DNA from: a virus | Taxonomy: Duplodnaviria; Caudoviricetes | Direction: 5' to 3' (one strand) | Virus record (IMG/VR): IMGVR_UViG_3300033463_006479 | Coordinates: 96,001-160,000 of that record | Length of the DNA stretch: 64,000 bases | The notes under the pieces: model-generated | The model's database searches: none | The model's input: only the letters and a program-made list of their open reading frames with translations | Told to the model about the DNA's origin: nothing | Shown: positions 3,608 through 63,827 of the stretch, in pieces | Numbering within the stretch: position 1 is the first letter of the stretch | Layout of the letters: each line of letters starts with the position of its first letter | Translations under genes and position numbers: made by a program

Positions 3608-3834
3608 TTCTTTGATTTTTTGATGATGTTCAATATTTTGAATATGTGATAAAATGCCAAGCCGACAAAAATATAAAGCGGAAGCTCAAAGCATAGGAAC
3701 ATAGTCCAGTTAAAACCAACTGTACCATAATGTCCTACTATAGCCATTATGATTCCAACTATGCCAATTCCAAGAATAAAGTTTAGGTTATTCTCTACGG
3801 CCTTTTTTATGAACTTTCCGATTTTGTCAAACAT
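3604..3834 (-). CDS. small membrane protein
   Basis: Two hydrophobic segments, ATGA overlap. Confidence 0.65.
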   Translation of the reverse strand: MFDKIGKFIKKAVENNLNFILGIGIVGIIMAIVGHYGTVGFNWTMFLCFELPLYIFVGLAFYHIFKILNIIKKSKK

Positions 3835-3840
3835 ATCCGT

Positions 3841-4395
3841 TTATTTTTCAACAACAGTATATCCGAATGGAACTACGCCGTTTGCTATGGATTCCCAATG
3901 CTTGGCCACATTATTGCCAGCAGGGAACGCATATTTGTCACCAGCCTCTTTTCTGCGGATTTCCTCATTGTTTTTTTCAACGAGTTCTTTTGCTTTTTTT
4001 TGCAATGCCGTCCAAGTGTCCTTGCTGATTGTTTTTTCAAACTTGTCATCGTATTGCGGATATAGCATATGGTTGTAGTTCACAAGACGCATTCCGCAAT
4101 CGTGGTCATCAAGCATAAGTTTGTCAATGATACTCCACAGCACACAACCTATTTGAAAGCCAGTCATACCATATTGACAAGAACACATTTCTATTGCCGC
4201 ATACGCAAGTGCAGATGCGGAATCAACGGTCTGCTCGTAAAAGTCAGTGCCGTCTTTTAACGCAAAACAATGCGAAACGAGTTCATCGGCAAACGCTTTA
4301 AGCTGTTCCGTGTTGCGGATTTCGGTTTTCGCACGATTGTGCCATTTTTCCTTATCGGCCTTCCACCGTTCTCTTTGTTCTTCTGTAATTTCCAT
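3841..4395 (-). CDS. hypothetical protein
   Basis: ORF probably from MEITEE, just downstream of a TTGTAC-N17-TATATT promoter. Confidence 0.7.
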   Translation of the reverse strand: MEITEEQRERWKADKEKWHNRAKTEIRNTEQLKAFADELVSHCFALKDGTDFYEQTVDSASALAYAAIEMCSCQYGMTGFQIGCVLWSIIDKLMLDDHDCGMRLVNYNHMLYPQYDDKFEKTISKDTWTALQKKAKELVEKNNEEIRRKEAGDKYAFPAGNNVAKHWESIANGVVPFGYTVVEK

Positions 4396-8020: not shown

Positions 8021-8418
8021 ACGTTCTTTGTTTTTTGGTTGTTATACATATCGGTTGGTGCTTCCAACGCAAGACCTTTCTCGATGAGGTGTCTGTAATC
8101 AAAATGTCGGGCATTAAGCCAGTCAAGTGCTACATAGGCGTTATGTGAGAACGTCCATTCTTCCGAGCCGTTGTGCGTGATTTCGTGCAACTCGTTTCTT
8201 TCGTCATCCGTCATACTTGACATAGGCCGCAAGAATGGTTTTATTTCATTGACACACCAAGTGTGGAAATAACGTCTGTCTATGTTTTCCCTGCTTAATT
8301 CCGTATCTTTGAGGACAAATCTGTCGCCAAGATAAGTTTCACATATAACGCCATACGGAAGTCTGGCGCACAAGTCGCACTTTACGAGTTCCTTTTCTTC
8401 TAATGTCATCACTCTCAT
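8017..8418 (-). CDS. conserved-type Bacteroidota phage protein
   Basis: DLCARLPYGV ... KPFLRPMSSMT ... LIEKGLALEAP. Confidence 0.7.
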   Translation of the reverse strand: MRVMTLEEKELVKCDLCARLPYGVICETYLGDRFVLKDTELSRENIDRRYFHTWCVNEIKPFLRPMSSMTDDERNELHEITHNGSEEWTFSHNAYVALDWLNARHFDYRHLIEKGLALEAPTDMYNNQKTKNV

Positions 8419-10554: not shown

Positions 10555-11403
10555 TCAGTCAATAATAAGATATCGCCCGTTGTCCTTTTTGCTGCCTTTG
10601 AGTTCGTCAAGCATATCCTTATAATAAAAAGCCCCGCCGTGTTTGACGATTTCACTCACACGCTTGATTTCGTCTTTTACCTCGGAGCGTTTAAGCAGAT
10701 ATTTCAGTTTTGCCTTGCCGTCAATTACAACAGCCGTATAGGTAACAAATGCGTTGCTGTCCCATAATTTGACTTTAAAAGGATAATTGCCACGTTCAAT
10801 CTCACCGACAAACTCACAGATATTTTTGAACTCGGTGGTTACAATATTCTTGTATTTAATCAAAGTGTCTTGGCCTTTATGTTCTTTGTTATATTGCAAA
10901 CGTAAAGCACCGTACAAACTGCTGTTTGAATAAAAATGGTGGCTGAATATGCTCAAAATCTTGATGGTGATTAGCATTTTTTCTTTTAAGCCTTCATCTT
11001 TACACCTCAAATATCTATACCAGAGGTCTTGCTGTTCAAACTTGCTGCACTTTGACAAGACTTCGTTTACAGCGTCATCGTTGATTTTAGGGAACGTCAT
11101 ATATGTATTTTCAAACGGGGTGCATTCCTTTTTGACAACAAACTTGTCAAATGCCCCAAGATTGGCGTATGCCTCAAAATCCCTTACGTGGAATTTGAAT
11201 CTGTCGCCGCATTTCTTGCAAGTGAAACAAATCATCTGGCCAGCAGTTCCGTCATAAATGCCATCGCATTCCCAATGCTGTAACGCATCGTAGAACGATT
11301 CATTGGTAGAGCACTCACAAGAAAGCTCCCCAGCATATCGGTAATCATCAGCCTGCGGTACTGACGGGATTGAATATGTTTTTCCGTTCAAATCAATTTG
11401 CAT
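10555..11403 (-). CDS. hypothetical protein with Zn-ribbon
   Basis: CECS ... CKKCG; first gene after the early promoter. Confidence 0.75.
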   Translation of the reverse strand: MQIDLNGKTYSIPSVPQADDYRYAGELSCECSTNESFYDALQHWECDGIYDGTAGQMICFTCKKCGDRFKFHVRDFEAYANLGAFDKFVVKKECTPFENTYMTFPKINDDAVNEVLSKCSKFEQQDLWYRYLRCKDEGLKEKMLITIKILSIFSHHFYSNSSLYGALRLQYNKEHKGQDTLIKYKNIVTTEFKNICEFVGEIERGNYPFKVKLWDSNAFVTYTAVVIDGKAKLKYLLKRSEVKDEIKRVSEIVKHGGAFYYKDMLDELKGSKKDNGRYLIID

Positions 11404-11424
11404 AGTATTATTATTTTAACGCTG

Positions 11425-11492
11425 CAAAAATAAAACAATGTTTGTTATGTTCAGCTTGTCTTTCCAAAAAGTTATCAACAAAGTTATTAACA
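11425..11492 (-). promoter_or_regulatory. early promoter with paired upstream repeat
   Basis: TATTTTTGCA at 11425-11432; gttatcaacaaagttattaaca at ~11472-11492. Confidence 0.7.
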
Positions 11493-11780
11493 ACTTGTTT
11501 CTTTTTCGTAAAAAGCAAGAAATCCTTTAAGTTCCAAAACATTTGGCTTTTTATCATCGCCAATGGTATAACTGATTATGCGTATTCTATGGTGGTATTC
11601 GTTCTTTTCAGTAACCACGCACTTTTCGGATTTGTCAATTTTGCTGATAAACGTATCACCGACATTTATATCGTCATACGCTTTTTTCATTTTTCTTTCC
11701 TCACGCATTTCACTAATTGGAGAAATTGCAAGAAGCATTGCAAAAATGAAGAACAATATAATTATGATTGCCTTACTCAT
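11487..11780 (-). CDS. membrane-anchored small protein (paralog 1)
   Basis: N-terminal TM then VGDTF ... VVTEK domain. Confidence 0.7.
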   Translation of the reverse strand: MSKAIIIILFFIFAMLLAISPISEMREERKMKKAYDDINVGDTFISKIDKSEKCVVTEKNEYHHRIRIISYTIGDDKKPNVLELKGFLAFYEKETSC

Positions 11781-12114
11781 TTACGGATTTTTTATATATA
11801 TTATTGAAGTCATACAACGACATAGCGTTCTCGCCACCGCCATAGCTGTTGTATTTGTAACGCACATAAACGCACTTTCCGTCATCTGTTGTTTTTGTAT
11901 CAACGACTGTAACCGTTCTGATGAACTGCTTGTAAGGATTGTCAAAGTCATCCGCATCAACATAAATATCGCCATTTTTAGGAATATCCTCATCTTTGAC
12001 TTTCAGCCTTTTTGATTTGGAATTAAGTTCTTTCAACATAAATCCAGCGAGAATGATTACGCCAACGCACAATACAATCACGATAATGTGCAATAAAATA
12101 AAAGTGGTTTTCAT
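11773..12114 (-). CDS. membrane-anchored small protein (paralog 2)
   Basis: N-terminal TM then NGDIY ... VTVVDTK ... YVRYKY. Confidence 0.7.
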   Translation of the reverse strand: MKTTFILLHIIVIVLCVGVIILAGFMLKELNSKSKRLKVKDEDIPKNGDIYVDADDFDNPYKQFIRTVTVVDTKTTDDGKCVYVRYKYNSYGGGENAMSLYDFNNIYKKSVNE

Positions 12115-12124
12115 ATTTCTGGTT

Positions 12125-12430
12125 TTAATTTGTTTTTAATCTGAATATCCACAAAAAATCATCCATTTCTTTAATGTGTGTGTCGCCGTCACCATACATA
12201 TATTTGACAAACATTCTGCCGTGCTCTCCAAAGTATTTGTCGATAACAGTAACCGTGTCTATCGCATACACGTCTGGGTGGTCAAGGTCATCAATCCTTT
12301 CATATTTGTCTCCGATATGGATTTTGTCAAAACGATGCAGTTTTTCTTGCCGTCCGACCAGATGAAAAATGATGGCCATAGGAACGACAATCACGATAAG
12401 TATGCAAATGTTTGTCAGAAAGTACATCAT
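12125..12430 (-). CDS. membrane-anchored small protein (paralog 3)
   Basis: N-terminal TM then IGDKY ... VTVIDK ... FVKYMY. Confidence 0.7.
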   Translation of the reverse strand: MMYFLTNICILIVIVVPMAIIFHLVGRQEKLHRFDKIHIGDKYERIDDLDHPDVYAIDTVTVIDKYFGEHGRMFVKYMYGDGDTHIKEMDDFLWIFRLKTN

Positions 12431-17069: not shown

Positions 17070-17711
17070 CTATCTGAATGTTGGCTGGTATTCTGGATGG
17101 TCTGCAAGCGGGCAGTCAATACACAATGCATCAATGCTTGTAACGCTTGACACATCCCATCCAGATATGTCTTGCAAGAAACTTTTAGCACCTTTGAATA
17201 TGCCGTCCATACTTTTTACACTTGACACATCCCATCCAGATATGTCTTGGTTGAAACTTTCTGCGTGGCAAAACATACCTTCCATATGCTCAACTCCAGA
17301 CACATCCCATTTGGATATGTCGCAGTTGAAATCAAGGGCATAGTCAAACATATAACACATATTTTTAACTTTTGAAACATTCCATTTTGAAATGTCTCCG
17401 TTAAAATGTGTTGTGGAAAACATACAATACATATTAGCAACATTGCTGACATCCCACTTGGAAATGTCGCCATTGAACTTTATACAATGAAAAAGATAGG
17501 ACATATCATTTATATCAGAAACGTCTATATCGTTCAAATCGCAATTTTCGCCTTCATTTTCAATTCTATATGATATAAGTTCTTCAAGTTCCTTTGTTGT
17601 TTTCGGAAAATACTTGTACAAAAGACTTTTTTTGTTGGAAAGTCTTGCTTTTGTAATCGGTTTTATTGAAAGTTTCTCGCTTATATAGTTTTGCGAATCA
17701 AGTATTCTCAT
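17070..17711 (-). CDS. DUF285/BspA-like repeat protein with bipartite N-terminal tag
   Basis: Repeated FNxDISKWDVSxVxxM; MRILDSQNYISE-KLSIKPITKARL; TATAAATA at 17727-17734. Confidence 0.85.
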   Translation of the reverse strand: MRILDSQNYISEKLSIKPITKARLSNKKSLLYKYFPKTTKELEELISYRIENEGENCDLNDIDVSDINDMSYLFHCIKFNGDISKWDVSNVANMYCMFSTTHFNGDISKWNVSKVKNMCYMFDYALDFNCDISKWDVSGVEHMEGMFCHAESFNQDISGWDVSSVKSMDGIFKGAKSFLQDISGWDVSSVTSIDALCIDCPLADHPEYQPTFR

Positions 17712-23763: not shown

Positions 23764-24782
23764 TGTTCTGAAATTATTGGTTTGATTACACGCATACAAT
23801 CTCTTGTAAAATTATATCGGTCAAGATAGTTTCCAGCAACAACAGCATCATAGACTTTTCCAACTTCTGTCGTGCTTTCAACAACATTGGTTGTCGCCGA
23901 TGCGAACTGGTTGTTATCATCAATCATAGAGCATACCATCAAAAGTGGCTGTTTTATATAAACTGGGTTTTTAAATCTGTGAGGCATAATGTAATATACA
24001 TTGTCCTCGCAAGCACAAGACGTACAATACCCACCAATTTTTTCAAGAAATGCTTTTTTCTTGAATGCCAAAGGTTGTGATGATGAAGATAAAAACGACC
24101 AAGAATAGTCAGTATCAGATGTAACAAATGAACTTTTCAAAACCAAAGAGATGTATGGTATTCTTATTGTGTCATTTCTATAAATTATTTGTTTCAATTT
24201 TATTTCACCTTTTAAGTATTTGTCTTTGTATTCCGAATATCCAACGCCATCAAAACCCATATTGTCAAGTATTTCTATAGGTCTTGTGTCATCTGGCATT
24301 TTTGATAATCCGATTTCTGTATTATGGTTATAAAACGCACCGCTTACCAGATTTTGACTAATACACCAAGAACGCATACCCGTAAAAAATTCGCTGTCCT
24401 TATATGTATTCACAGCATTTTGTATCTTTGACAAAGTGCCTTCATAAATGAAATCATCACTATCAAGAGTGAATATCACATCGGAATCACCGTCATAAGA
24501 AGCCAAGTCTATGCACTTGTTACGCATAATGCCATACCTACCATTCTCAACAGAAATACCATCAAGCGGGTCGTGATAGACTTTTATTTTCTCTTTGCAA
24601 TGTTTAAACGAAACGCCTTGCATTTCTACGAAGAATCGTTCAACATATTCTTTGACACAGCCATCTTTTGAATTGTCAAGAATAATCCATTCCCAATCAT
24701 CAAAATCTTGCGAACAAACATTTATAAGACGAGCGTTCTGCCAAGGAACTATTTTATTGCACGGCGTAATTATACTAATCAT
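23760..24782 (-). CDS. glycosyltransferase family 2
   Basis: MISIITP, EWIILDNSKD, LDSDD DxD motif, ED motif. Confidence 0.85.
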   Translation of the reverse strand: MISIITPCNKIVPWQNARLINVCSQDFDDWEWIILDNSKDGCVKEYVERFFVEMQGVSFKHCKEKIKVYHDPLDGISVENGRYGIMRNKCIDLASYDGDSDVIFTLDSDDFIYEGTLSKIQNAVNTYKDSEFFTGMRSWCISQNLVSGAFYNHNTEIGLSKMPDDTRPIEILDNMGFDGVGYSEYKDKYLKGEIKLKQIIYRNDTIRIPYISLVLKSSFVTSDTDYSWSFLSSSSQPLAFKKKAFLEKIGGYCTSCACEDNVYYIMPHRFKNPVYIKQPLLMVCSMIDDNNQFASATTNVVESTTEVGKVYDAVVAGNYLDRYNFTRDCMRVIKPIISEQ

Positions 24783-52613: not shown

Positions 52614-53672
52614 TTGATGAAGATATTAAGTTCAAAAGATTTCGCAAGTTTACACGAAAAACTCGACATACGTCCAATCACAAAGGATATGCTTTCCGAT
52701 ATGTCAGATGAACGCATATTGAAAGAGAAAATGCACGCAAGGAAAGACACGAAAGAATATGCTGAATTTATCTGGTACACATATGCAAAGATACAGAAAA
52801 GAATAATTGAAGGGAACTATAAAGTTGAGGTATCTGGCAAATTGACATTAAAAGGCGAACTTGGATATACTCACAACCAAGAAAATATATGGATTGTCGA
52901 ATTGCCGTTAATATCAAGCAATGTGTATAAAATAAAAGATTTGACGGATTACGAATGTTCTCCGTATTGGCCGAAACCGCCATATCATATTTGGATAACA
53001 TCAGCAGAAAACGCATATTCCGATGAGGTAAAAAAGGATGTGTGGAAAAAAATCGGAATGGAACTGAAACCAATATATGAACTCGTTGCAGACAAAAATG
53101 GGTTATACAACAAAAAAATAACAGATGCTATAACATTAAAATTCAATAAAGCAAACTGGGGGATAAATGCGCATCAAGAATTGATAGATGGACTTGAAAA
53201 TGCGATAGGTGACGTGAATGTGAAATTGCAATATACAGTCAGAGGTTTGGGTGATAACACAATAGAGCCAATTGTATATATATGTTTGAATAAAAACGAA
53301 AAGGGTATAGATAGGCATAGCAGCAATGTCTTTTGGTTCGATTTAAGTTATGGTAAAATAGAATGCAGAAATATGCCGCATTTGTATCTGTCGCCGTTTG
53401 ACAAAAGCGGAAATAATCCATTTAATCCGAGTTTGAAATATTTGGCTATGCGAAGTTCTGATAATTTGCTGAAAGAATGTGGTATGAAACCTTGGAGAAA
53501 GGTATCTTACAAAACACCGCAAGATGTCATAAACAAAATATCAAGATATGTGAACGACAGCATACGTCTTATGGACATATATTGTGGAACGAATGTCAAA
53601 TTGTTAGGCGGAAAAGATATGATTGGCGTTTTGGACATATCAATCGCTGATGCGAATATGGAAAATATATAA
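52614..53672 (+). CDS. putative internal virion protein with bipartite tag
   Basis: MKILSSKDFASLHE-KLDIRPITKDML. Confidence 0.75.
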   Translation: MMKILSSKDFASLHEKLDIRPITKDMLSDMSDERILKEKMHARKDTKEYAEFIWYTYAKIQKRIIEGNYKVEVSGKLTLKGELGYTHNQENIWIVELPLISSNVYKIKDLTDYECSPYWPKPPYHIWITSAENAYSDEVKKDVWKKIGMELKPIYELVADKNGLYNKKITDAITLKFNKANWGINAHQELIDGLENAIGDVNVKLQYTVRGLGDNTIEPIVYICLNKNEKGIDRHSSNVFWFDLSYGKIECRNMPHLYLSPFDKSGNNPFNPSLKYLAMRSSDNLLKECGMKPWRKVSYKTPQDVINKISRYVNDSIRLMDIYCGTNVKLLGGKDMIGVLDISIADANMENI

Positions 53673-53677
53673 TAAAA

Positions 53678-53911
53678 ATGAGTACGATACTTGCACTTGA
53701 AGAATTTATAGTGGAAAACGACAATGAACTTTTTTTGGAAGTTCTCGAACACTTCAAAAAACAATATCCGAGAAGAAGGATTGAAGTCAAAAGATACGGC
53801 TATGGAAACATAGTGAGCATTGACGGTGAGGACAAATTCAATACGAGCGGTTACAACCTGCTCTATAATATTAAACGTCTGTGCGATTGCCTTGAAGATG
53901 AATTGATTTAA
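53678..53911 (+). CDS. small late protein with CTS-like N-terminus
   Basis: MSTILALEEFIVE. Confidence 0.65.
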   Translation: MSTILALEEFIVENDNELFLEVLEHFKKQYPRRRIEVKRYGYGNIVSIDGEDKFNTSGYNLLYNIKRLCDCLEDELI

Positions 53912-53913
53912 TT

Positions 53914-54426
53914 ATGATGAAGATATTGAAAGCAGCCGATTACATTGGTGAGAAACTCACAATAAAGCCAGTTACAAAAACGAGATTGTCGGATATAAAG
54001 AAAGCCAACAGCGAGCGGCACACATATAGGATAGCCGAATGTGAGGTTATTATGGCTGAAGATAATTATGTCAATGGCGAGGATGAGGGTATATCTTTTC
54101 CATTTGTGATAACTCATATTAAAACAGCAAACAGTTTGGAAAACCTTTTGCGCAACTTCAATGATGATGTTTGCCGTGGTCACGCATTTGATATTGAAGA
54201 TTTTGTTTATGACACAGAAACTGACGGTAGAGTTGATATGTCTGTTACAAGTATGTTGATAACAACAAATTTCAATTTCAAAGAACCTACACAAAATGAT
54301 TGGGAAAGATTCAAAGAAGGCAAAATCAATATGACATCGCTAATATTCCAACTTCTCATAGAGAAAGACGAATTTGTTGATGACATATCAGAAGATTGTG
54401 AAAAAATAGGTATTATAAGTAGGTAG
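53914..54426 (+). CDS. putative internal virion protein with bipartite tag
   Basis: MKILKAADYIGE-KLTIKPVTKTRL. Confidence 0.75.
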   Translation: MMKILKAADYIGEKLTIKPVTKTRLSDIKKANSERHTYRIAECEVIMAEDNYVNGEDEGISFPFVITHIKTANSLENLLRNFNDDVCRGHAFDIEDFVYDTETDGRVDMSVTSMLITTNFNFKEPTQNDWERFKEGKINMTSLIFQLLIEKDEFVDDISEDCEKIGIISR

Positions 54427-54450: not shown

Positions 54451-54922
54451 CGGAATTATCCCTTTTAGTCTTGTAACACGCTTTTATAAATATACAAGAA
54501 AAATATAAACTTGAATTATGACACATATTAAAAGAATCAATGAAATGAACCAACAAATTTTTCTAAAAAATTTGGATGATTTCAAAATACATATCACAAG
54601 TGTTGATGTTTATGATAAACATATCAAAACCGACATTAAAAATGGAGATATGATGGATTTTGATACATTTTCTGTAAAATGCAACAATATAGATAAATAT
54701 GGCGGTCATTATAGTGTTGAAATTGACAAAAAGGATGAAAATACTTATGTTGTTGTTTGTATTGATGATGAAGGTAGTGTTTCTTGCGAAATTGCATTTA
54801 CAATTATTTACTTTAATCCAAATTCGGCAGATGACATTTTTACTTGTATGATAAATCGTTCAAATGTTTTACGTTAATCGTATAACAAGAATTGCATTAC
54901 AAGACTAAAAGGGATAATTCCG
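54451..54922 (+). mobile_element. TIR-bounded cargo cassette (IS1595-like, no transposase)
   Basis: Perfect 26-bp inverted repeat CGGAATTATCCCTTTTAGTCTTGTAA; flanks AAAAATAA/AAAAAGAA (7/8 match). Confidence 0.75.
54518..54877 (+). CDS. cassette cargo, late protein with CTS-like N-terminus
   Basis: MTHIKRINE; TATAAATA at 54485 inside the cassette. Confidence 0.7.
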   Translation: MTHIKRINEMNQQIFLKNLDDFKIHITSVDVYDKHIKTDIKNGDMMDFDTFSVKCNNIDKYGGHYSVEIDKKDENTYVVVCIDDEGSVSCEIAFTIIYFNPNSADDIFTCMINRSNVLR

Positions 54923-54985
54923 AAAAAGAATAACCGACCTGGCAAGGAAACAAAATTTCCATTGGTGAGCGTATCACCGAAAAGA

Positions 54986-55012
54986 AAAAGCCTCCGATTT
55001 GGAGGCTTTTTC
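54986..55012. terminator. bidirectional intrinsic terminator
   Basis: aaaaagcctcc-gattt-ggaggcttttt between convergent genes. Confidence 0.8.
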
Positions 55013-55043
55013 AATTAATGGAAAGATTTGAAAAATTCAGAAA

Positions 55044-55232
55044 TTAGTTTTCTTTATTCTCTTGTTTTTCTTCTTCCGCAGCATTCTCATTATTGAAGAA
55101 CTCTGGGGACAGTTTTGTGATGGCGGCATAAACCAAGGATGCGTCCTTTAACGTATATGCACCAGCCTTCTGTCCAATTACGGCTGCTTGGATAAGCACG
55201 TTGATTGCTTCTTTTTCGTTCATATTACTCAA
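55044..55232 (-). CDS. small hypothetical protein
   Basis: AINVLIQAAVIGQKAGAYTLKDA. Confidence 0.7.
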   Translation of the reverse strand: MSNMNEKEAINVLIQAAVIGQKAGAYTLKDASLVYAAITKLSPEFFNNENAAEEEKQENKEN

Positions 55233-55671
55233 TGTTTATTTGTTTATTAATCGTTTTCTGTTCTCGTTTCGGCATAACAACCGTCAGAACGCCATTTTCA
55301 AGATGTGCTCTGATTTTGCTTTCATCAACACAATCGTCAAACGGGATTTTGATTTTTTCGTCTTTTCCCATCTTCAAAAATGTACGGTCAAAGCCTTCAC
55401 CTTTAACGCCAACGCTGACATAGTTTTCTCCGTTGTTTGTACATTCAATAGACATACAAAGTTCGGACTTGTCAACCTCTGGCATAAGAAGTTTCACGAT
55501 GACCGCCTTGTCGTTTTCTTCTCTTTTGCAATTACTCATAGCGCAAAAATGGAAGAAATCCTTGTTGCCATTCTTTTTTTCTGGAAACGTTTTCTTGAAA
55601 GCGGAATCCATTTTTTCAAAATCAACGCCCATTGCGTCAAATAAATTTGTCAAATCTGTAATGTAACTCAT
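55225..55671 (-). CDS. Hsp20/alpha-crystallin small heat-shock protein
   Basis: MPEVDKSEL ... VDESKIRAHLENGVLTVVMPK. Confidence 0.85.
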   Translation of the reverse strand: MSYITDLTNLFDAMGVDFEKMDSAFKKTFPEKKNGNKDFFHFCAMSNCKREENDKAVIVKLLMPEVDKSELCMSIECTNNGENYVSVGVKGEGFDRTFLKMGKDEKIKIPFDDCVDESKIRAHLENGVLTVVMPKREQKTINKQINIE

Positions 55672-55785
55672 AACTTTGCTTTATATTAAATAATAAAAAT
55701 TTTTGTTTTATGAACAAAATATGATTTTTTTGTTTCAGATTAATGAATACAATTTGCGTGCCAAACACGTCTGTCTGACATTTTG

Positions 55786-57132
55786 TCAGTTTTTCAATGA
55801 TTTTTTCAGTGATTTCAAGTCATCAAGGTACATATCGGCAGGAACTCGCTTCTTCATAATTTCAAGTTCCAGTTTCTTGGCATCGTATTCTTTGAGCAAT
55901 TCGGCATAGCGTTCTTTTGTGAGCGAGTATATCGGCATATTTATGAGATAGTCAAATGAATTTGAAACCTTGTCAAACTTTTTGTTTTCAAGCCAATCGC
56001 AAATTTCTTTTTTAGGAACATTGCTGACTTTAAGTTTTTTGTCAATTATTGCCTTTATGAATTTTGCACGATTTCCGAGAATAAGGATTTCCTTCATAAG
56101 CATATCTATAATATGTTTCTTCCGTTTCTCGTACCAAGAAAGTCTGAACTTGCAGAAATACGGTATGATATCCTCGGCTCTTTCAAACTGCAAAAGTCTG
56201 TCATTTTCATCAACCGATATTATGATTTCTGTTTCAGAGCTGTTTACACGCAAAACCGATTCCAGTTTGTTTGTGTCTATAAGTTCTTTCAATGCGGCTC
56301 GTGTGAATTTGAGAACATAATCAACGCCAGACGAACTGTTGTTCTCATAATCAACAATCACTTTTTTGTCAATCAAAGAATCAAGGTATTCTTCATATTT
56401 CTCAAAAGTTATCGCTGGCGGCAAATCGGTTACACGGACAGTTGTCGTATTGACAATTTTATAAATGCCAGATATATTCCACTTGTTAGGGTTGTCATTG
56501 TCACGAACAAATGTGCCGCCAAATTCAGAAAGCCAAGGTTTCAGTTCCTTTACTTTTTTATTGTTGAGAAATGCTATGCAGGCATCAACAACATCCTCTG
56601 GGTTTCTGTTGAGAATATTTGTTGAAAAGCCTACAGCAATTCCAGAACTGCCGTTCAACAATATTGTCGGTATGATTGGAAGAAAGAACAATGGTTCAAT
56701 TTCATAACCTTCTTCCATTCGTTTTTCAAGCAATTCAAAATCCTTATAAAGAAGTCTGAAGTTTTTTGAAAGTTTAGTTCCTATATATCTCGGAGCACCA
56801 GCATCTGGAACACGCAGGCTTCCGTATTGGCCGTGGCCTTCAAGAAGCGGTAGGCTGTTCTTGAATGTCTGTCCCATATTGGTTATGGCATCGTTCATAC
56901 TTTTGTCGCCGTGAGCGTAAAGGGCAAGCGAAGAAACCTCACCGCCAAGCTGATAAACCTTCATTGGTTTCTCATTGCCAGTTTTCCATATTTTGTTGGC
57001 GATGAAAATTATCTTTCGCTGAACTGGTTTTAACCCATCAATGCAACTTGGTATGGCACGGTCTTCAATGACCGACTTTGCAAAAAGAAGTTGGTCAACG
57101 TCAAGAAAGTTGTCTATTGTTCGTGTTCTCAT
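55786..57132 (-). CDS. type II topoisomerase GyrA/ParC-like subunit (T4 gp52-like)
   Basis: RAIPSCIDGLKPVQRKI, YAHGD.S, GAPRYI catalytic Tyr, LLNGSSGIAVGFST. Confidence 0.95.
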   Translation of the reverse strand: MRTRTIDNFLDVDQLLFAKSVIEDRAIPSCIDGLKPVQRKIIFIANKIWKTGNEKPMKVYQLGGEVSSLALYAHGDKSMNDAITNMGQTFKNSLPLLEGHGQYGSLRVPDAGAPRYIGTKLSKNFRLLYKDFELLEKRMEEGYEIEPLFFLPIIPTILLNGSSGIAVGFSTNILNRNPEDVVDACIAFLNNKKVKELKPWLSEFGGTFVRDNDNPNKWNISGIYKIVNTTTVRVTDLPPAITFEKYEEYLDSLIDKKVIVDYENNSSSGVDYVLKFTRAALKELIDTNKLESVLRVNSSETEIIISVDENDRLLQFERAEDIIPYFCKFRLSWYEKRKKHIIDMLMKEILILGNRAKFIKAIIDKKLKVSNVPKKEICDWLENKKFDKVSNSFDYLINMPIYSLTKERYAELLKEYDAKKLELEIMKKRVPADMYLDDLKSLKKSLKN

Positions 57133-57136
57133 CTGA

Positions 57137-57700
57137 TTATGCTGAAAGTCTTTTTGAGAAAATCAAGTTACGTAATTCCATAAGTCGCAAATATTCATCA
57201 ACATCACAACCAAAATGTTCAGACACAAAATCTTCAATTTCTGGAACTTTATAATTTTCAACTTCAGTTGTTGTATATGCTTTCGGAAACAAATCTATTG
57301 TGTTGTGCTCATTAACACTAAATAAACGGTATTGGTCGTAAGACGGATATGCCTCTGTGTTATATACCCGTTCATCAGCAAGAAAGCATACAGCGGTCGG
57401 CAAACCGTTCAAATCTTCCTCATAGAAAGCGCAGTTCGGTACTTTAAGCTGGTCAAGTGCCGACATAGCATCAATCAAATCTATATACACGCCAGCATCA
57501 AGCACAATCATTGTCTTGAAAATGTTAGCCCAGTCATTATAAGCATCACGGTCACAGACATTGTATTTGTGTTCGTCTTTGATTTTTTCGGAATACTCCA
57601 CAACAGCGTGAAGCGATTGTATTCCTTTCTGCATAGGATTCAACTGGCGTAGAACCATTGAATACATACGCTGTTCAAGTTTTTTATCGTTGTCTTGCAT
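57137..57700 (-). CDS. peptidyl-tRNA hydrolase PTH2-like protein
   Basis: RMYSMVLRQL..QKGIQSLHA, KTMIVLD, FYEEDL...TAVCF. Confidence 0.6.
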   Translation of the reverse strand: MQDNDKKLEQRMYSMVLRQLNPMQKGIQSLHAVVEYSEKIKDEHKYNVCDRDAYNDWANIFKTMIVLDAGVYIDLIDAMSALDQLKVPNCAFYEEDLNGLPTAVCFLADERVYNTEAYPSYDQYRLFSVNEHNTIDLFPKAYTTTEVENYKVPEIEDFVSEHFGCDVDEYLRLMELRNLIFSKRLSA

Positions 57701-57718
57701 TAAAAATAAAATTAAAAG

Positions 57719-58294
57719 TTAAACAATTTTTGCGTCCTTAACGTCCTCTTTGGTTGAATTTCTGAATATAGTGTCAAACACGCCGCCATAATAACCAGTT
57801 TTCGCCATAATTCTCAATGCTTCATCAGAGTTCCATTCCCCTATTGAATAATAATCATCAAAACTGATGTCTTTCAAAACAAGTTCGGCGGTAACATCAA
57901 AATAATAGTCGCCTATTTTGTTAAAAGCGTGGTCTATTGGAAAACTTCCGTACAATGTCATATAGCCTTCCACATATTTTATATCTTCCCAGCCATATGT
58001 TTTCCCGTCTATGTTCAATGTGATTTCATCAAACGATTCAAGTATTTGAGCCGTATGCAATGCGTTGGAATAACATTCTTTTTTCTTGAATTTGCCGTTG
58101 CGTTTTAGAATATTTATTGTAGATGCATCAAATAGTTCATATACCGAAGTACACTTAACGTGCTTAACAGATTCAAGTTTCTTATTAAAGTAATCACGCT
58201 GATAGCCAGATGATTGTTCCGCAAAAAAACGAAGCATATCAACTATCGAATTGCTGCTTGATTCCGTTATGAACTCAATATATGATTTAACCAT
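57719..58294 (-). CDS. late protein with T4-like CTS, possible transglutaminase-like fold
   Basis: MVKSYIEFITE; ECYSNA..YVEGY..IDHAFN..YFDVT (C-H-D); TATAAATA at 58347. Confidence 0.65.
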   Translation of the reverse strand: MVKSYIEFITESSSNSIVDMLRFFAEQSSGYQRDYFNKKLESVKHVKCTSVYELFDASTINILKRNGKFKKKECYSNALHTAQILESFDEITLNIDGKTYGWEDIKYVEGYMTLYGSFPIDHAFNKIGDYYFDVTAELVLKDISFDDYYSIGEWNSDEALRIMAKTGYYGGVFDTIFRNSTKEDVKDAKIV

Positions 58295-58320
58295 TTTTCA
58301 AAAATATGTTTCCTTATTTA

Positions 58321-59645
58321 CGAAATTATCCCTTTTATTCTTGTATTATTTATAAGACTTCAAGTTCAATAGTCGCTTCGTTGCTGTCCGATTGTTCACC
58401 AGTTTTATTGGGTCTTGCAAACGGTTGGTACACAGCTCCACGACCGTACTCGGCATTCCTTGCCGAGATATGTCTCTGCCATTCGTCTGGTTCATATTGT
58501 TCGTTGTTCTTCGCCGCATTGATGTCTCTGTCGTGATGAGCACCACAGTTCGGACAAGTCCAATATCTTACTGCCAGATTTTTGACTTTCTTGTTTATAT
58601 AACCGCACTCGCTGCACATCTGGCTTGACGGATAATATCTGTCAACTTTCATCATAGTCTTGCCGTTCCAAGCACATTTGTATTCAAGTGTCTGAACGAA
58701 CTGATACCAGTTGCATTCGGATATGGATTCAGCAAGTTTGTGATTTTTCATCATACCTTTTACATTCAAATCCTCAACTTTTATCAAGTCATAAGTTTTG
58801 ACCAGTTCTGCGGTTATCTTATGTATGTAGTCAGTTTTGATGTCTGTGATTTTCTGGTAGATTCGGTTGCATTTCAATACTTGGTTTTCATATCTCTTGC
58901 TTCCATAGACCTTCCTTGCCAGACATCTCTGATATTTTTTCAGTTTTCTTTTGTAATATCTGATTATGCTTCGTTTGCTTGCATATTTGAATCCCTTGCT
59001 TGTGATTATAAGTTCCTTTATTCCGAGGTCAAGACCTACACGTTCATAAGTTTTGTTTCTTGGTGTGTAGTCCTGCTTGACCGTTATCGCTATGTAGTAT
59101 CTGCCAGCCTTGTTTTTTGATATTGTGGCAAAGCAGATTTTACCTACAATTCCACGCTCCATAACTATGTCTATTCCGCTTTTGAGCTTCGGAATGTATA
59201 GTTTGTTATCCTTGATATGAAATGTGTTAGGCTGTGCAATCTTGAACGACTGCTTGTCTCTTCTGTTCTTGAACTTCGGATAGGAGCTTCTGTGCTTGTA
59301 GAAATTGTCATACGCAGTATGCATATTCTTCAAACTGCATTGCAAAGACTGCAAAGGAACAATGTTCAAGAACTCAAATCCTTCAAACTTGCGGATTTCT
59401 GTTAATTTACCAGACTGCACATTGTATGAATCACTTGTCTTTGCTTCATCATACTGTTTTTTTTTCTCGTTTAGAAAATGGTTGTACACAAACCTGCAAC
59501 ATCCGAACACATTGGCAAGATAAACTTGCTGCTCCTTGTTCGGATACAACCTAAACTTGTACGTGTACATTCTCTCCATCTGATTAAAACACTATACCAT
59601 ATTTATATTACTCACATTTTTACAAGACTGAAATGGATAATTCCA
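58321..59645 (-). mobile_element. tnpB cassette bounded by the same TIR family as 54451-54922
   Basis: cgaaattatcccttttattcttgta and ttacaagactgaaatggataattcc, 2 mismatches each to the perfect TIR. Confidence 0.75.
58350..59579 (-). CDS. tnpB: TnpB (IS605 OrfB-type) RNA-guided nuclease
   Basis: YKFRLYP HTH, VGLDLGI, VEDLNV, CSECG/CPNCG, DRDINAAKN. Confidence 0.95.
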   Translation of the reverse strand: MERMYTYKFRLYPNKEQQVYLANVFGCCRFVYNHFLNEKKKQYDEAKTSDSYNVQSGKLTEIRKFEGFEFLNIVPLQSLQCSLKNMHTAYDNFYKHRSSYPKFKNRRDKQSFKIAQPNTFHIKDNKLYIPKLKSGIDIVMERGIVGKICFATISKNKAGRYYIAITVKQDYTPRNKTYERVGLDLGIKELIITSKGFKYASKRSIIRYYKRKLKKYQRCLARKVYGSKRYENQVLKCNRIYQKITDIKTDYIHKITAELVKTYDLIKVEDLNVKGMMKNHKLAESISECNWYQFVQTLEYKCAWNGKTMMKVDRYYPSSQMCSECGYINKKVKNLAVRYWTCPNCGAHHDRDINAAKNNEQYEPDEWQRHISARNAEYGRGAVYQPFARPNKTGEQSDSNEATIELEVL

Positions 59646-59656
59646 TTTATATGTGC

Positions 59657-60643
59657 CTATTTGACATCAGCAACAGTATAGTACACATTGCTGATAAACA
59701 TTTTCGGGATTGCAGTGAACGTATAGCACGCATTTTTTATTTCTGGTGCGGCGTTGTCACGCCAAAAATCAATGACAATATCATCATCGCCTTGTTTGCC
59801 ACGTGGGTCAATTTCAATTATAGCATAGTTATGAATATGTTTCATATCTATAATTTTTCGCAAATTGGAGATTGTATCTTCTTTTGTATCACATCTTCCA
59901 CACAAGAAAATCTTTTCTGGAAAATACCTGTAACCAGTTTGCGATTTAGAATCTGATTGCGACCTAACACGACCGACTTTTGGTCGGAGTCCAACACGCA
60001 TTATGCTGTTAATGTTTTTTATATCTGTTATATGATAGACATATTGGTTTCTTTTTATTTCGTCATTTATACATTCAGTATAATATGGCTCAATAAAAAC
60101 TGTAAGTTTCCCATTAACTGATTCTATAATAGTTATATAATAAAGATACAACTCCAATAAATCATATAATTTATCGGACATTGGTGATGACAACAACATA
60201 TTTGTTCCAACACAAGTATCATCTACAATAGAACAATTTGAACTGAACGATATGCTTATTGTATCTATATCATTAGCTACATTATCGTCATAACCGCACA
60301 CAGCATTATATTCGGAAACAAGTAAGTTTATTTTGTCAATAAGGGGTTTTGCGTTATGTGTGCGTAACGATTCATTAATATTAATTATGTGATTTATATG
60401 CCCGCACATAGGCCGTTCCCGTATTCCAGACCATTGCCAGTTTTTACTGTAGTAATAACCAAGAGCATAATCAACAATCTCGTCATCTGAATTTTTTTCA
60501 TCAATATGGCTTAAATCAAAAAACTCTTCAATTGTACGGAAATCATAACCCTCTTGTATTGAAGATAGTCGCAACGGTATATTTGAATATTTTTCGTAAT
60601 CCGTTTTCATAATAAATTTCATTTGATTTTTTATCCATATCAT
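59657..60643 (-). CDS. hypothetical protein with ADP-ribosyltransferase-like C-terminal domain
   Basis: YVYHITD..NINSIMRVGLRP ... IFL ... IIEID ... YT..AIP. Confidence 0.5.
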   Translation of the reverse strand: MIWIKNQMKFIMKTDYEKYSNIPLRLSSIQEGYDFRTIEEFFDLSHIDEKNSDDEIVDYALGYYYSKNWQWSGIRERPMCGHINHIININESLRTHNAKPLIDKINLLVSEYNAVCGYDDNVANDIDTISISFSSNCSIVDDTCVGTNMLLSSPMSDKLYDLLELYLYYITIIESVNGKLTVFIEPYYTECINDEIKRNQYVYHITDIKNINSIMRVGLRPKVGRVRSQSDSKSQTGYRYFPEKIFLCGRCDTKEDTISNLRKIIDMKHIHNYAIIEIDPRGKQGDDDIVIDFWRDNAAPEIKNACYTFTAIPKMFISNVYYTVADVK

Positions 60644-62214
60644 TTTTGTTTTGAAGCATCTGTGAACAAATCAAACTTGATTGCTGGATATGATTCATAA
60701 TCCTCAATACGTATATCTTCTGGCGTTATCTGGTCATAACGCAAAACCGTTTGAGGAAGAACAAGTTTGGCCGCACCGAACAAATGGGGGTTTCGTTCAA
60801 GCATTTCAAGAACGCCGTCCGTGTGGTTTTTGTAAATGTGTGCGTTTCCAAGAGAACCAGCAAGCATCTTCGGGCACATATTGACTGTCTTTGCTATGAT
60901 TGACAGAAGTATGGCATAACTCAATATATTGAACGGAATACCCAATGCCATATCACAAGAACGCTGTATCCAACGCATACTCAAATAGTATTCTGGTATG
61001 TTGTATGTTTTCAGCACATACTCCATATTCATACCTTTTGTATCAAGACCTATTGTGTTGTAATACAATTCAACTCTTTCGTCAAAAGGTATGGGTTCTG
61101 CATAGAACTCCATAGCATAATGACAAGGCGGCAATGCCATTTTATCCATAAAAGCAGGATTCCAAGCAGACACAACAAGCCGTCTATTGTTCGGGTCTGT
61201 TTTTAATTTTTCAACAACGGCATCCAACTGGTTCACACCAGAATGACCGAAGTCTGTCCATTGTGAGCCGTAGATTGGACCGACATCGCCAAAAGTATAA
61301 TTCTCTCCATCAATGTCAATACTTGTTTCGTTTTTAACACCATCCAAAAAAGTATCAAAATCAACTGGTTCGATATTCGCTGATTTGGCAATTTTCACAT
61401 AATGGGCATACGCATCCTTATCCCATATATGAACATTTCTGTCAACCAGATATTTAATGTTCTTGCATCCGTTAAGAAACCAAACAAGTTCCACAACAAC
61501 AGCATTTAAAGCCATTTTCTTTGTTGTGAGAACTGGCAGACCTTTGCGTAAATCAAAATGCAGATGTGCATCAAATATACTGCGGGCAGTTCCTACCCTT
61601 GTGGGTGTATCAACACCATTTTCAAGAATATCACGCAGCAGGTTCAGATATTGTATGTCGCAATGTGATTCGTGTCGTTTTCTGAACATTGTGAAAAACG
61701 TATGGTCATCGACATCTTCAATCATACGGACATCATATTTTTTCTGAAATCTTCCGCCATTTGTGGCATTGCCTATAGTGTACCAGAATTTTGGAAAATA
61801 TGTGTCAAATTTTTCAATGCTGCAATTCTTGATGACACTGCAATAAATGGTATCGGCCAAGTCATTGTCCATAACATATTTGTAAACCTGCGCCCCGCCA
61901 ATATAATACACTTGTTTATAGCCCAACGTTTCAGCAATACTTTCAGCCTCATCAAACGATGAGGCATAAGCAAGCCAAGTTTTGTCAGAAGGCTGCGACA
62001 CGCCATTGGTGTCGGCCTTTGAAGTAACCACTATATTCACTCTGTTTTTTAGCGGATGACCAATGGATTCAAATGTGGTTCTACCCATAATGACAGCTTG
62101 CCCTTTTGTAAGACGGACAAACCTTCTCATATCGCTTTTGTTTTCCCAAGGCATTTTGCCGTTAAGTCCGATACCGCCATTCTGACTGACGGCAACAACA
62201 ACATTTCTAATCAT
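60640..62214 (-). CDS. thyA: bifunctional dihydrofolate reductase-thymidylate synthase
   Basis: DHFR: GIG..GKMPW..D, VIMGRTTFES, IGGA.VY, DTYFP; TS: LTTKK, ELVWF, GPIYG.QW, MALPPCH, QRSCD.ALGIPFNI, AHIY. Confidence 0.95.
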   Translation of the reverse strand: MIRNVVVAVSQNGGIGLNGKMPWENKSDMRRFVRLTKGQAVIMGRTTFESIGHPLKNRVNIVVTSKADTNGVSQPSDKTWLAYASSFDEAESIAETLGYKQVYYIGGAQVYKYVMDNDLADTIYCSVIKNCSIEKFDTYFPKFWYTIGNATNGGRFQKKYDVRMIEDVDDHTFFTMFRKRHESHCDIQYLNLLRDILENGVDTPTRVGTARSIFDAHLHFDLRKGLPVLTTKKMALNAVVVELVWFLNGCKNIKYLVDRNVHIWDKDAYAHYVKIAKSANIEPVDFDTFLDGVKNETSIDIDGENYTFGDVGPIYGSQWTDFGHSGVNQLDAVVEKLKTDPNNRRLVVSAWNPAFMDKMALPPCHYAMEFYAEPIPFDERVELYYNTIGLDTKGMNMEYVLKTYNIPEYYLSMRWIQRSCDMALGIPFNILSYAILLSIIAKTVNMCPKMLAGSLGNAHIYKNHTDGVLEMLERNPHLFGAAKLVLPQTVLRYDQITPEDIRIEDYESYPAIKFDLFTDASKQK

Positions 62215-62783
62215 TTCAAATTCTCCTTTAAATATTCATTAGCCTTTCTGAAAAGTTCCTTTGTCTTGGAAAGCGACATTCCCATAGTTTCGGAAATGCT
62301 TATGAAATCGGTTTTTCCGTTGTGTGTTTCCTTGAAACCATATTTCATATCAACAATGTCCCTGCTTTTTGAATCAAGACTTCCCACAAGACGTTTGTAA
62401 TCCATAATGACTTCATTATAAATTGCATCATTGAACTGCACAAATTCCGTATCATCGCCATCATCATAGGTAATGCCGACATAACTATGCGTGATATTAT
62501 CGTATTTCTTGAAACCAGAATTAAGTCTATGATACGGGATATGAACGACATTACGCTGAAGGTTAATTTCGTTCTTTGCATATTCAGTCATAAGAGGTTT
62601 GCAGAAAACCCAGAAGTTAGGATTTTTTGCAGAATCGTATTTTTCCATACTTTTGACAACAGCAAGCGCACACACCTGCCGCACGTCATTTTGTGTTTCC
62701 TCGTTGAAACAGTTGAATTTGCAGAATATATAACTTACAATCCTGCTGAAATCCTTTGACTTGAGAAGTTCATTTATTTCCAT
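62211..62783 (-). CDS. phage sigma70-like factor
   Basis: Region 2 DVRQ..LAVVKSMEKYD..KNPNFWVF; region 4 LDSKSRDIVDMKYG..ISETMGMS. Confidence 0.75.
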   Translation of the reverse strand: MEINELLKSKDFSRIVSYIFCKFNCFNEETQNDVRQVCALAVVKSMEKYDSAKNPNFWVFCKPLMTEYAKNEINLQRNVVHIPYHRLNSGFKKYDNITHSYVGITYDDGDDTEFVQFNDAIYNEVIMDYKRLVGSLDSKSRDIVDMKYGFKETHNGKTDFISISETMGMSLSKTKELFRKANEYLKENLK

Positions 62784-63064
62784 AGCACATCGATTTTTTT
62801 GTACATAGCGTTTTTGATAGTTTCAAGGCCGTTTTTTTCTTCAAATCTTGAATCACCGCTTGACGAAAAAATCACAAAGTGCTGTTTTTTGGTATCCCAA
62901 TAGGCAAGCCCGTAAACGCCATACTTGACGATTGCATTGTCTTTTTCGGAATTGGACTTGTTTGTGTCGGCAAACAAGTCAAGTTGTACATTTCTCTTCA
63001 CGGCATACACTATGCCATAGCCGCCTTCTGACGGCTTTTCATTTCTCGAATCTTTCCAGTCCAT
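62774..63064 (-). CDS. hypothetical protein
   Basis: 96-aa ORF. Confidence 0.65.
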   Translation of the reverse strand: MDWKDSRNEKPSEGGYGIVYAVKRNVQLDLFADTNKSNSEKDNAIVKYGVYGLAYWDTKKQHFVIFSSSGDSRFEEKNGLETIKNAMYKKIDVLWK

Positions 63065-63095
63065 ATATGTAAATTTTTAAAAGTTATCAAAAAAA

Positions 63096-63827
63096 TCAAT
63101 CCTTAATAATCGTAACATTACTGTAATCAATCGGTGTGTAATATTTCCTATTGTCAATTATAGTTTTCGCTTCCATATAGTATGAATCATACTCATCTTT
63201 TCCAAGAGCCACAATCTCGTTATCCTTAAATCCCATAATAGGATTTGAATATATAGCGGTCTGCTCATAGTCAAATCGGTTTATCTTGACAAGGACACGG
63301 TTTCCATTATAATCAATGCCGAAAGCATCAGTGTACATAAGGTCTGTGCTCTTTTTCATAAAATAATCTGGATAACCATCATTTGCGTGGACATCGTTTT
63401 TTGGCTCTGGCTGGACAGCTGATGTCTTTTTGTGCGGTTCTGGTGTCGCATAGTCGTTGGTTGAAATTACCACTCGTGTTTCCTCTGGAATTGCAGTTAT
63501 GGTGTTTTGCGGTTTCACGCTTTTCCACACAAATCGGCCATCTATTTTTTTCAGATAATTATGGCGCAAAGAACAAAGTTCAAAATCCTTATCAGTTTCA
63601 ATTTTTTCTATTAGATTGAACAGATTTTCCGCTATTGTTTCTGGACTATAATGCTTGCAATACAATTCATACAACTTTGATACGCAAGACACTGCGTTAT
63701 CACCGCCAGCATTATCATTGAACACGCCATCGTTATACGTAGCACACCACTCCCCGTTTGAGAATTGTATGTTTATGTTTTTGCTGTCATCGCCGAACAA
63801 AGCGAGTTTTTTTGTCAAATCGTCCAT
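63096..63827 (-). CDS. hypothetical protein
   Basis: From MDDLTK. Confidence 0.65.
   Translation of the reverse strand: MDDLTKKLALFGDDSKNINIQFSNGEWCATYNDGVFNDNAGGDNAVSCVSKLYELYCKHYSPETIAENLFNLIEKIETDKDFELCSLRHNYLKKIDGRFVWKSVKPQNTITAIPEETRVVISTNDYATPEPHKKTSAVQPEPKNDVHANDGYPDYFMKKSTDLMYTDAFGIDYNGNRVLVKINRFDYEQTAIYSNPIMGFKDNEIVALGKDEYDSYYMEAKTIIDNRKYYTPIDYSNVTIIKD

Follow-up and report, generated by a model that had tools for sequence, protein, structure and literature searches.

Insertion sequences of the IS1595 family have a DDE transposase whose N terminus carries a zinc ribbon, terminal inverted repeats (TIRs) of ~25 bp, 8-bp target-site duplications (TSDs), and passenger genes, and passenger-carrying members are reportedly included in the treatment of the family by Siguier, Gagnevin and Chandler in 2009. 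The window analyzed here (a 64,000-nucleotide stretch, bases 96001–160000 of the 192,463-bp IMG/VR record IMGVR_UViG_3300033463_006479 from a large rumen phage, which is ~70% complete and 38% G+C) has only transposase-less, one-gene derivatives that we assign to this family, and one of the cargos is an RNA-guided nuclease, TnpB, whose predicted RNA runs into the end of the insertion sequence as one unit. The main text of Altae-Tran et al. (2023, PNAS, PMC10691335) describes six DDE-associated TnpB branches (DDE-1 to DDE-6), all with inverted ends, together with solo TnpBs that have the same ends, and a 2026 review (PMC13565253) names ISL2, IS630, and IS1031 as partner families. We found no paper linking IS1595 to TnpB, and the main text of PMC10691335 does not mention it. 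The general TnpB/DDE arrangement is already published; IS1595 is a new partner family, and the gain is incremental.

As in the systems described in that main text, tnpB here lies in a TIR-bounded DDE transposon with its 3′ end near the element end, and solo copies share their ends with transposase-bearing copies (here the elements L209, L052, and L044). Unlike in those systems, the carriers are mostly phages and the tnpB is a close ISDra2-type gene, not a derived branch. The other near relative is Fanzor1 in a non-autonomous TIR transposon of Spodoptera frugiperda ascovirus 1a, in which RNA mapping placed both TIR and TSD inside the guide-RNA scaffold (Yoon et al. 2023, NAR, PMC10711439). Both are virus-borne, transposase-less, nuclease-only TIR elements present in several copies per genome, and in both the TIR is in the scaffold and the guide runs into the flank, a feature that is predicted for our locus. 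There the virus is eukaryotic, a short fixed duplication lies in the scaffold, and the RNA ends were sequenced, whereas here the virus is bacterial, the nuclease is a bona fide TnpB, the 8-bp duplication is variable, and the scaffold is predicted from sequence. With the TnpB/omega RNA of ISDra2 (IS200/IS605; PDB 8BF8, 8EXA, and 8H1J) the window copy shares catalytic and zinc-finger residues and a structured RNA overlapping the 3′ end of the gene, but it has no subterminal hairpin ends, Y1 TnpA, or fixed target pentanucleotide. Relative to canonical relatives, the 3′ part of its scaffold (two hairpins and GTAGTTCAT) is replaced by one hairpin and a tail made of the TIR.

We consider it very probable that both units of the window are non-autonomous derivatives of one IS1595-family transposon and that the tnpB scaffold has been remodeled onto the right repeat. 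The best features for this explanation are an exact empty site, a phage-borne autonomous copy, and covariation for the repeat within the guide-RNA scaffold. The two units are laid out as follows (window positions; ORF, open reading frame).

54451..54476, + strand: left TIR of the one-gene cassette, CGGAATTATCCCTTTTAGTCTTGTAA, half of a perfect pair; the identical sequence ends IS1595 elements elsewhere.
54485..54492, + strand: promoter-like motif TATAAATA ahead of the cargo ORF, from a genome-wide motif survey.
54518..54877, + strand: 119-aa ORFan cargo gene.
54897..54922, − strand: right TIR of the one-gene cassette; the 8-mers flanking the cassette are 7/8 alike.
58350..59579, − strand: tnpB, 409 aa, an RNA-guided endonuclease that is ISDra2-like by structure and family matches, with a low ratio of nonsynonymous to synonymous substitution (dN/dS).
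59600..59607, − strand: TATAAATA upstream of tnpB, at the same place in all tnpB cassettes.
59620..59645, − strand: left (gene-upstream) TIR of the tnpB cassette, with T in place of C at the tip.
59646..59656, − strand: left flank (GCACATATAAA), what is left here of the native promoter split by the insertion; it follows the stop codon of the 328-aa ORF.

The 26-nt inverted pair 54451–54476 / 54897–54922 is 100% complementary and bounds a 472-bp one-gene cassette; a second pair of the same repeat, 58321–58346 / 59620–59645, has the 1,325-bp tnpB cassette between its arms, which carry 2–3 mismatches each and are 92% identical per side to the small-cassette repeat. An earlier note on this DNA, made from the sequence alone, had described just such a perfect pair around the 119-aa ORF and a slightly decayed one around tnpB. 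It had also seen no transposase in either unit; ORF and family searches agree, and both units are therefore non-autonomous. The genome-wide search for the TIR that it suggested returned 10 copies of the 25-nt repeat core (≤3 mismatches) in the whole 192-kb record, with four of these in the window and none in 100 of 100 dinucleotide shuffles. A looser search with the 11-nt tip gave no extra copies with the remainder of the repeat.

The identity of the ends comes from elements outside this phage. The exact repeat is present in 11 stretches from IMG/VR and 39 from Bacteroidales metagenome-assembled genomes (MAGs) of rumen and horse feces, often many per genome, and the content between inverted pairs is varied (140 bp to 3.4 kb). 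Three elements, L044 (a whole 2.7-kb contig), L052 (2.4 kb), and L209 (3,388 bp), enclose within the same ends an IS1595 transposase of 310–314 aa that matches DDE_Tnp_IS1595 (PF12762, E 1e-33), the zinc ribbon PF12760, and NF033547 (176–182 bits; cut-off 75 bits), and each also bears one to three passenger ORFs. The 26-bp TIR of the small cassette is identical in all three. L209 sits in a 387-kb jumbo phage, G006 (93% complete), and has perfect repeats and a perfect TSD, ATTTTAAA. There are more than 7,000 relatives of the IS1595 transposase, the source-named one being "IS1595 family transposase [Bacteroidales bacterium]." Cargo of other cassettes includes phosphoribosyltransferase, AAA/zeta-like, LPD3, and Lcl_C genes and ORFans. 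These comparisons identify the window repeats as the ends of an IS1595-family DDE transposon, and the element family is a Bacteroidales insertion sequence that also lives in phages, not a phage-specific one.

Much of what the earlier note had drawn from the letters held in these searches: the ends are of IS1595 type, with the same TIRs flanking IS1595 transposases elsewhere; the cognate DDE transposase with the same ends that it proposed looking for exists in L044, L052, and L209; transposase-less cargo derivatives are represented by numerous cassettes with diverse cargo; and the captured RNA-guided nuclease is one cassette's cargo. Its phage-adapted cassette system survives in part, as phage cassettes carry TATAAATA and bacterial ones TAcCTTTG, but the system is not phage-specific. 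As a separate observation, a subterminal inverted block, GTCGTCATCCCGAYATAACGGCATACCGTCATAACG, lies inside both repeats of autonomous elements (L209:545–600 and 3830–3882; L044; L037) and is lacking from one-gene cassettes; it may be an extra transposase-binding or regulatory sequence.

Perfect 8-bp TSDs are present at 16 related elements, autonomous L052 and L209 among them. The tnpB carriers with a perfect TSD are L116 (AGTGATTT), L119 (TATTCAAT), L120 (TATTAAAT), and L127 (AAAGAAAT), and L214, a 449-bp TIR cassette whose cargo is 57% identical to the window 119-aa ORF, has the perfect TSD AAATAAAT. At the small cassette of the window the flanking 8-mers are AAAAATAA and AAAAAGAA, identical at 7/8 positions. 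The 8-bp duplications that the earlier note had named for the family are thus seen in full at the 16 elements and at 7/8 at the small cassette.

An empty site was found among relatives obtained via the topoisomerase gene and the cargo protein. L215, taken from a 51-kb ENA contig and compared over 6.4 kb (as L210), is 96.4% identical to the window over that length and has the same gene order, small cassette included, but between the 321-aa ORF and the 191-aa gene it has only GCACATATAAATATGGAAACATACTTTTGAAAA. L216 is the same at this site, which lies at 8374–8406 of L215, and a third contig has the same spacing. At the empty site the sequence is GCACATATAAATATGGAAACATAC; the filled site in the window reads GCACATATAAA, then T-GGAATT...element...TTTCG, then TAAATAAGGAAACATATTTTTGAAAA. 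Set against the window, the empty L215/L216 site indicates that the tnpB insertion is the repeat-bounded unit, exact to the base. The insertion splits the TATAAATA promoter motif preceding the 191-aa gene. The presence/absence polymorphism bounded by the repeats on which the earlier note had staked its idea does exist, as an exact empty site in a 96%-identical relative. In the window the duplication is shortened to TAAA(T), and the left tip is without the usual C. One simple reading is that an 8-bp duplication of TAAATATG was made and that ATGC was then lost at the left junction, a loss that would also have disabled the left end. The window tnpB copy, whose left tip lost the terminal base and half of the duplication, appears to be immobilized.

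The cargo nuclease matches PF07282, PF01385, and PF12323, and the ISDra2 TnpB structures 8BF8/8EXA at E 5e-75, with conservation of the RuvC D/E/D residues (GLDLG, VEDLN, and HDRD) and of the zinc finger CxxC...CxxC. It scores 305 bits with NF040570 guided_TnpB (cut-off 100) and 391 bits with the narrower NF038281 IS200_TnpB, under the cut-off of 425 for that family. Relatives at least 73% identical all have the TIR, and those at most 50% identical have canonical ends, with a hairpin and GTAGTTCAT. The tnpB stop lies 0–10 nt from the right TIR and within 250 bp of the element end, as in the DDE-associated branches. IS200/IS605 elements are marked by subterminal hairpins, no TIR, no duplication, and a Y1 TnpA, whereas these elements have true inverted repeats and 8-bp duplications.

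Three full tnpB units of ~1.32 kb are present in the phage genome (genome positions 10991–12306, 62006–63321, and 154321–155645, the last being the window copy); their proteins are 89–93% identical, and nucleotide homology between the copies ends at the repeat tips. Pairwise synonymous divergence (dS) of 0.6–1.0 together with dN/dS of 0.06–0.07 points to copies that are old and separately maintained, not recent duplicates. The same dN/dS denotes strong purifying selection, and TnpB looks functional.

There are also two 5′-truncated tnpB remnants that retain the right repeat, both on the minus strand: genome 182267–182559 (L013), with the last 90 codons, and 24351–24464 (L012), with the last 25. 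The former has the whole predicted RNA scaffold and its own flank, with an AT-rich promoter-like stretch, TTTTTATTATATT, ahead, and may be an orphan guide RNA available in trans. A separate tnpB of 433 aa at genome 70586–71695 on the plus strand (L009:3593–4894) encodes a protein 38% identical to the cassette TnpB and has no IS1595-type repeats. Elsewhere, L122:3720–3807 is a tandem remnant, in which a right repeat is followed by a second scaffold fragment and a second right repeat, and L019:6895–7219 is a 325-bp repeat-bounded element containing only a scaffold piece.

The relation between the guide RNA and the transposon end involves the following features on the minus strand.

58321..58467, − strand: putative omega-RNA scaffold, overlapping the last ~40 tnpB codons and continuing through the right TIR.
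58347..58354, − strand: second TATAAATA, within ~10 nt inserted into the loop of the last scaffold hairpin, facing the downstream 191-aa gene.
58321..58346, − strand: right (gene-downstream) TIR of the tnpB cassette, doubling as 3′ hairpin arm and tail of the predicted scaffold.
58301..58320, − strand: candidate for the guide, covering the first 20 nt past the right TIR; these also form the 5′ leader of the 191-aa gene.

When 21 non-redundant family members are compared by codon position, codons 1–360 show a coding pattern (positions 1 and 2 ~0.9 conserved, position 3 at 0.5–0.8), whereas in codons 361–409 all three positions are ~0.8 conserved. This third-position conservation points to an RNA constraint that overlaps the coding one. 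From 23 sequences, RNAalifold predicts four nested helices and a first hairpin. The scaffold model, including a candidate pseudoknot, has 31 pairs, with 97.9% of cells paired versus 92.3% in shuffles and only 24–48% in slid controls; compensatory changes occur at 10 pairs versus 5.1 expected, a number reached in 0 of 500 shuffles. The pseudoknot would join the first-hairpin loop GGAA to the tail TTCC, which is 99% pairable without compensatory change, and it is unproven.

A conserved block, GAAGCGAC.ATTGAAC, is followed in nearly every member by a hairpin closed by CTT/AAG. The 3′ arm of this last hairpin is the inner half of the right repeat, after which comes the unpaired outer half, GGGATAATTCCG. 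In L131, which is 59% identical and has a diverged repeat, the same hairpin shape is made from other bases (GGGCG-AGCA-CGCCT), and the nearest repeat-less relatives (44–50% identical) have two hairpins and GTAGTTCAT, with no sequence similarity kept beyond that point. The right repeat should thus be part of the scaffold, and with the repeat built in, the guide should begin in the flank, so that the TSD would supply its first 8 nt. The first 16 nt past the window right repeat match the empty allele of L215/L216 with one mismatch, and CACATA precedes them there; the other four guides match their own flanks only. We also considered a scaffold that ends at ATTGAAC and leaves the TIR to act as the guide, and rejected it: just inside the TIR there is no conserved motif, and only 16 nt are left after the conserved GAAGCG block, compared with ~71 nt in canonical relatives.

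Of the target-adjacent motif (TAM) there is a lead only. TTTAT stands at the left boundary of canonical relatives, and "TA" precedes the duplication in 5 of 5 tnpB cassettes versus 2 of 8 others (Fisher p = 0.02, one register assumed), or 3 of 9 with L214, a sample too small to name a TA-ending TAM.

The explanation that we favor would run as follows. An IS1595-family transposon resident in Bacteroidales of rumen and gut, and also in the large phages of these bacteria, would give rise to derivatives that keep the 26-bp TIRs and a short promoter and in which the transposase is swapped for a single cargo gene, here the 119-aa ORFan or tnpB with its guide-RNA scaffold. A full-length copy outside the cassettes, carried by the host or by a phage such as G006, would supply transposase in trans, and cassettes would insert into AT-rich, promoter-proximal DNA with an 8-bp duplication being made. 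The scaffold would have been remodeled so that the inner half of the right repeat pairs with upstream sequence to form the last hairpin and the outer half serves as the 3′ tail, with the guide read from whatever DNA lies past the repeat. TnpB and its RNA could then cut co-infecting relatives without the insertion, and recombinational repair would copy the cassette in, a homing step modeled on the supposed working of IS200/IS605 TnpB and Fanzor1. It is possible, and we propose this only tentatively, that the re-fitted ISDra2-type TnpB/omega RNA cassette spreads among co-infecting jumbo phages in this way, by RNA-guided homing atop trans-mobilized transposition, as an independently reached bacterial-virus counterpart of Fanzor1.

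Several observations weigh against this explanation. This phage record, 70% complete, yielded no IS1595 transposase, and five MAGs bearing the insertion sequence gave no match to the cassette TnpB, so that a helper has to be assumed. In this genome the flanks of the three tnpB copies match at 2/8, 6/8, and 5/8 positions, with no clean duplication. No conserved TAM was found among the 5-mers before tnpB-cassette duplications (AATTA, TATTA, TGTTA, ATATA, and ACATA). In the distant relatives L202–L204 (topoisomerase 78–79% identical) both cassettes are absent along with adjacent genes, and in L111 homology to this genome ends at the repeat tip on a single side, just one of the two flanks being homologous.

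Other readings of the same locus differ in what they ask of TnpB. It could be a hitch-hiking passenger moved by the DDE transposase alone with no homing benefit, perhaps serving the phage against competing phages or host elements, and PMC13565253 makes the case that OMEGA systems bring little benefit to cut-and-paste DDE elements. A variable 8-bp duplication indeed gives no built-in TAM, unlike in IS200/IS605, and other cassettes of the family hold unrelated genes. We regard this reading as rather unlikely in light of the strong purifying selection on TnpB and the covariation in its RNA, the re-fitting of the scaffold to the TIR with a guide read from the flank, and the match of the window copy's guide, with its single mismatch, to a natural empty allele. 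Alternatively, guide RNA and TnpB might regulate the downstream gene in the manner of TldR, since the guide covers the 5′ leader of that gene, a co-oriented ORF starts 2–26 nt past the right repeat in 15 of 25 tnpB cassettes, and the window cassette lies within the promoter of the 191-aa gene. The catalytic D/E/D is intact, unlike in nuclease-dead regulators, and the position is equally explained by AT-rich promoter insertion and tolerance of co-oriented insertions, which leaves such regulation quite improbable.

The repeats themselves might be phage operator, terminator, or recombination sites, or the elements might be of IS200/IS605 or IS607 type and moved by a Y1 or serine TnpA. Several copies in the genome are without clean duplications, and synteny breakpoints coincide with the repeats, as such a reading would have it. 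The same repeats surround a DDE transposase in unrelated bacterial genomes, the repeat alone is neither palindrome nor hairpin, and the ends of canonical relatives are quite different; with many perfect 8-bp duplications and the exact empty site, we regard this possibility as already refuted and give it almost no credence.

If both units do derive from an IS1595-family transposon, a classical ISDra2-type TnpB can change vehicle, from IS200/IS605 to a DDE transposon, as the exact empty site and the many duplications suggest, and its guide RNA can be adapted by rebuilding the 3′ hairpin and tail from the end of the new transposon. The locus would also be a tractable prokaryotic system in which to study a question posed by Fanzor, namely how an RNA-guided nuclease that depends on scarless excision can benefit an element that leaves duplications behind and lacks a fixed target motif. 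More broadly, Bacteroidales and their large phages would be exchanging genes through a one-gene cassette system whose promoters match the carrier.

This matching concerns the motif TATAAATA, which has 59 copies in the record; of the 59, 49 are outside ORFs and 38 are 5–60 nt upstream of a same-strand start. It precedes 39 of ~230 genes, the large terminase gene among them, and is genuinely promoter-like in this phage. Phage-borne cassettes have TATAAATA just inside one repeat, and cassettes on bacterial contigs have at the same place TAcCTTTG, which we take to be a Bacteroidetes −7 type motif. The promoter motif that the earlier note saw in each unit is there, with TATAAATA preceding both the 119-aa ORF and tnpB; late expression, which it also claimed, is only hinted at by the position of the motif ahead of the large terminase gene among the 39. 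Nine of ~25 family members, window copy included, carry TATAAATA as an insertion within the last hairpin's loop. An outward-promoter role for this loop motif was entertained and dropped as not discriminating, as most cassettes with or without the insertion have a co-oriented downstream gene.

The 119-aa cargo protein has no Pfam or PHROG match and only three homologs, and its weak structural neighbors are hotdog-fold thioesterases (TM scores 0.4–0.47). The label "CTS-like" or "virion-type" given to it by the earlier note finds no support: it is an ORFan without virion signature, and its neighbors are DNA-metabolism genes. The surrounding genes encode a fusion of dihydrofolate reductase (DHFR) and thymidylate synthase (TS), a hydrolase, a topoisomerase II A-like protein, and HSP20. 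The DHFR-TS fusion is 524 aa (60640–62214, − strand; PHROG 316 and 160; PF00186 and PF00303 in relative L215), and in L202–L204 its stop codon overlaps the TATAAATA of the next gene. Three plus-strand ORFs (352, 77, and 170 aa; 52614–54426) adjoin the small cassette, and the 328-aa ORF (59657–60643, − strand) adjoins the tnpB cassette; these four are absent in L202–L204 and present in 96%-identical L215, have no Pfam/PHROG match, and form variable islands abutting the cassettes. A pattern-method search of IMG/VR returned no relatives of the 328-aa and 170-aa proteins.

Between the small cassette and a converging 62-aa ORF is a strong, bidirectional terminator-like hairpin, AAAAAGCCTCCGATTTGGAGGCTTTTT (54975–55015); a search of Rfam gave only sub-threshold Phe_leader matches, on this terminator (~54944–55059). 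Finally, a large paralogous repeat-gene family with 65–75% DNA identity occurs at window 17070–17711 (− strand) and at genome ~18–35, 66–70, 87–89, and 137–138 kb. It also stands beside tnpB cassettes in L128 and L132, it matches PHROGs of unknown function, and its 963-aa neighbor in L215 carries DUF285.

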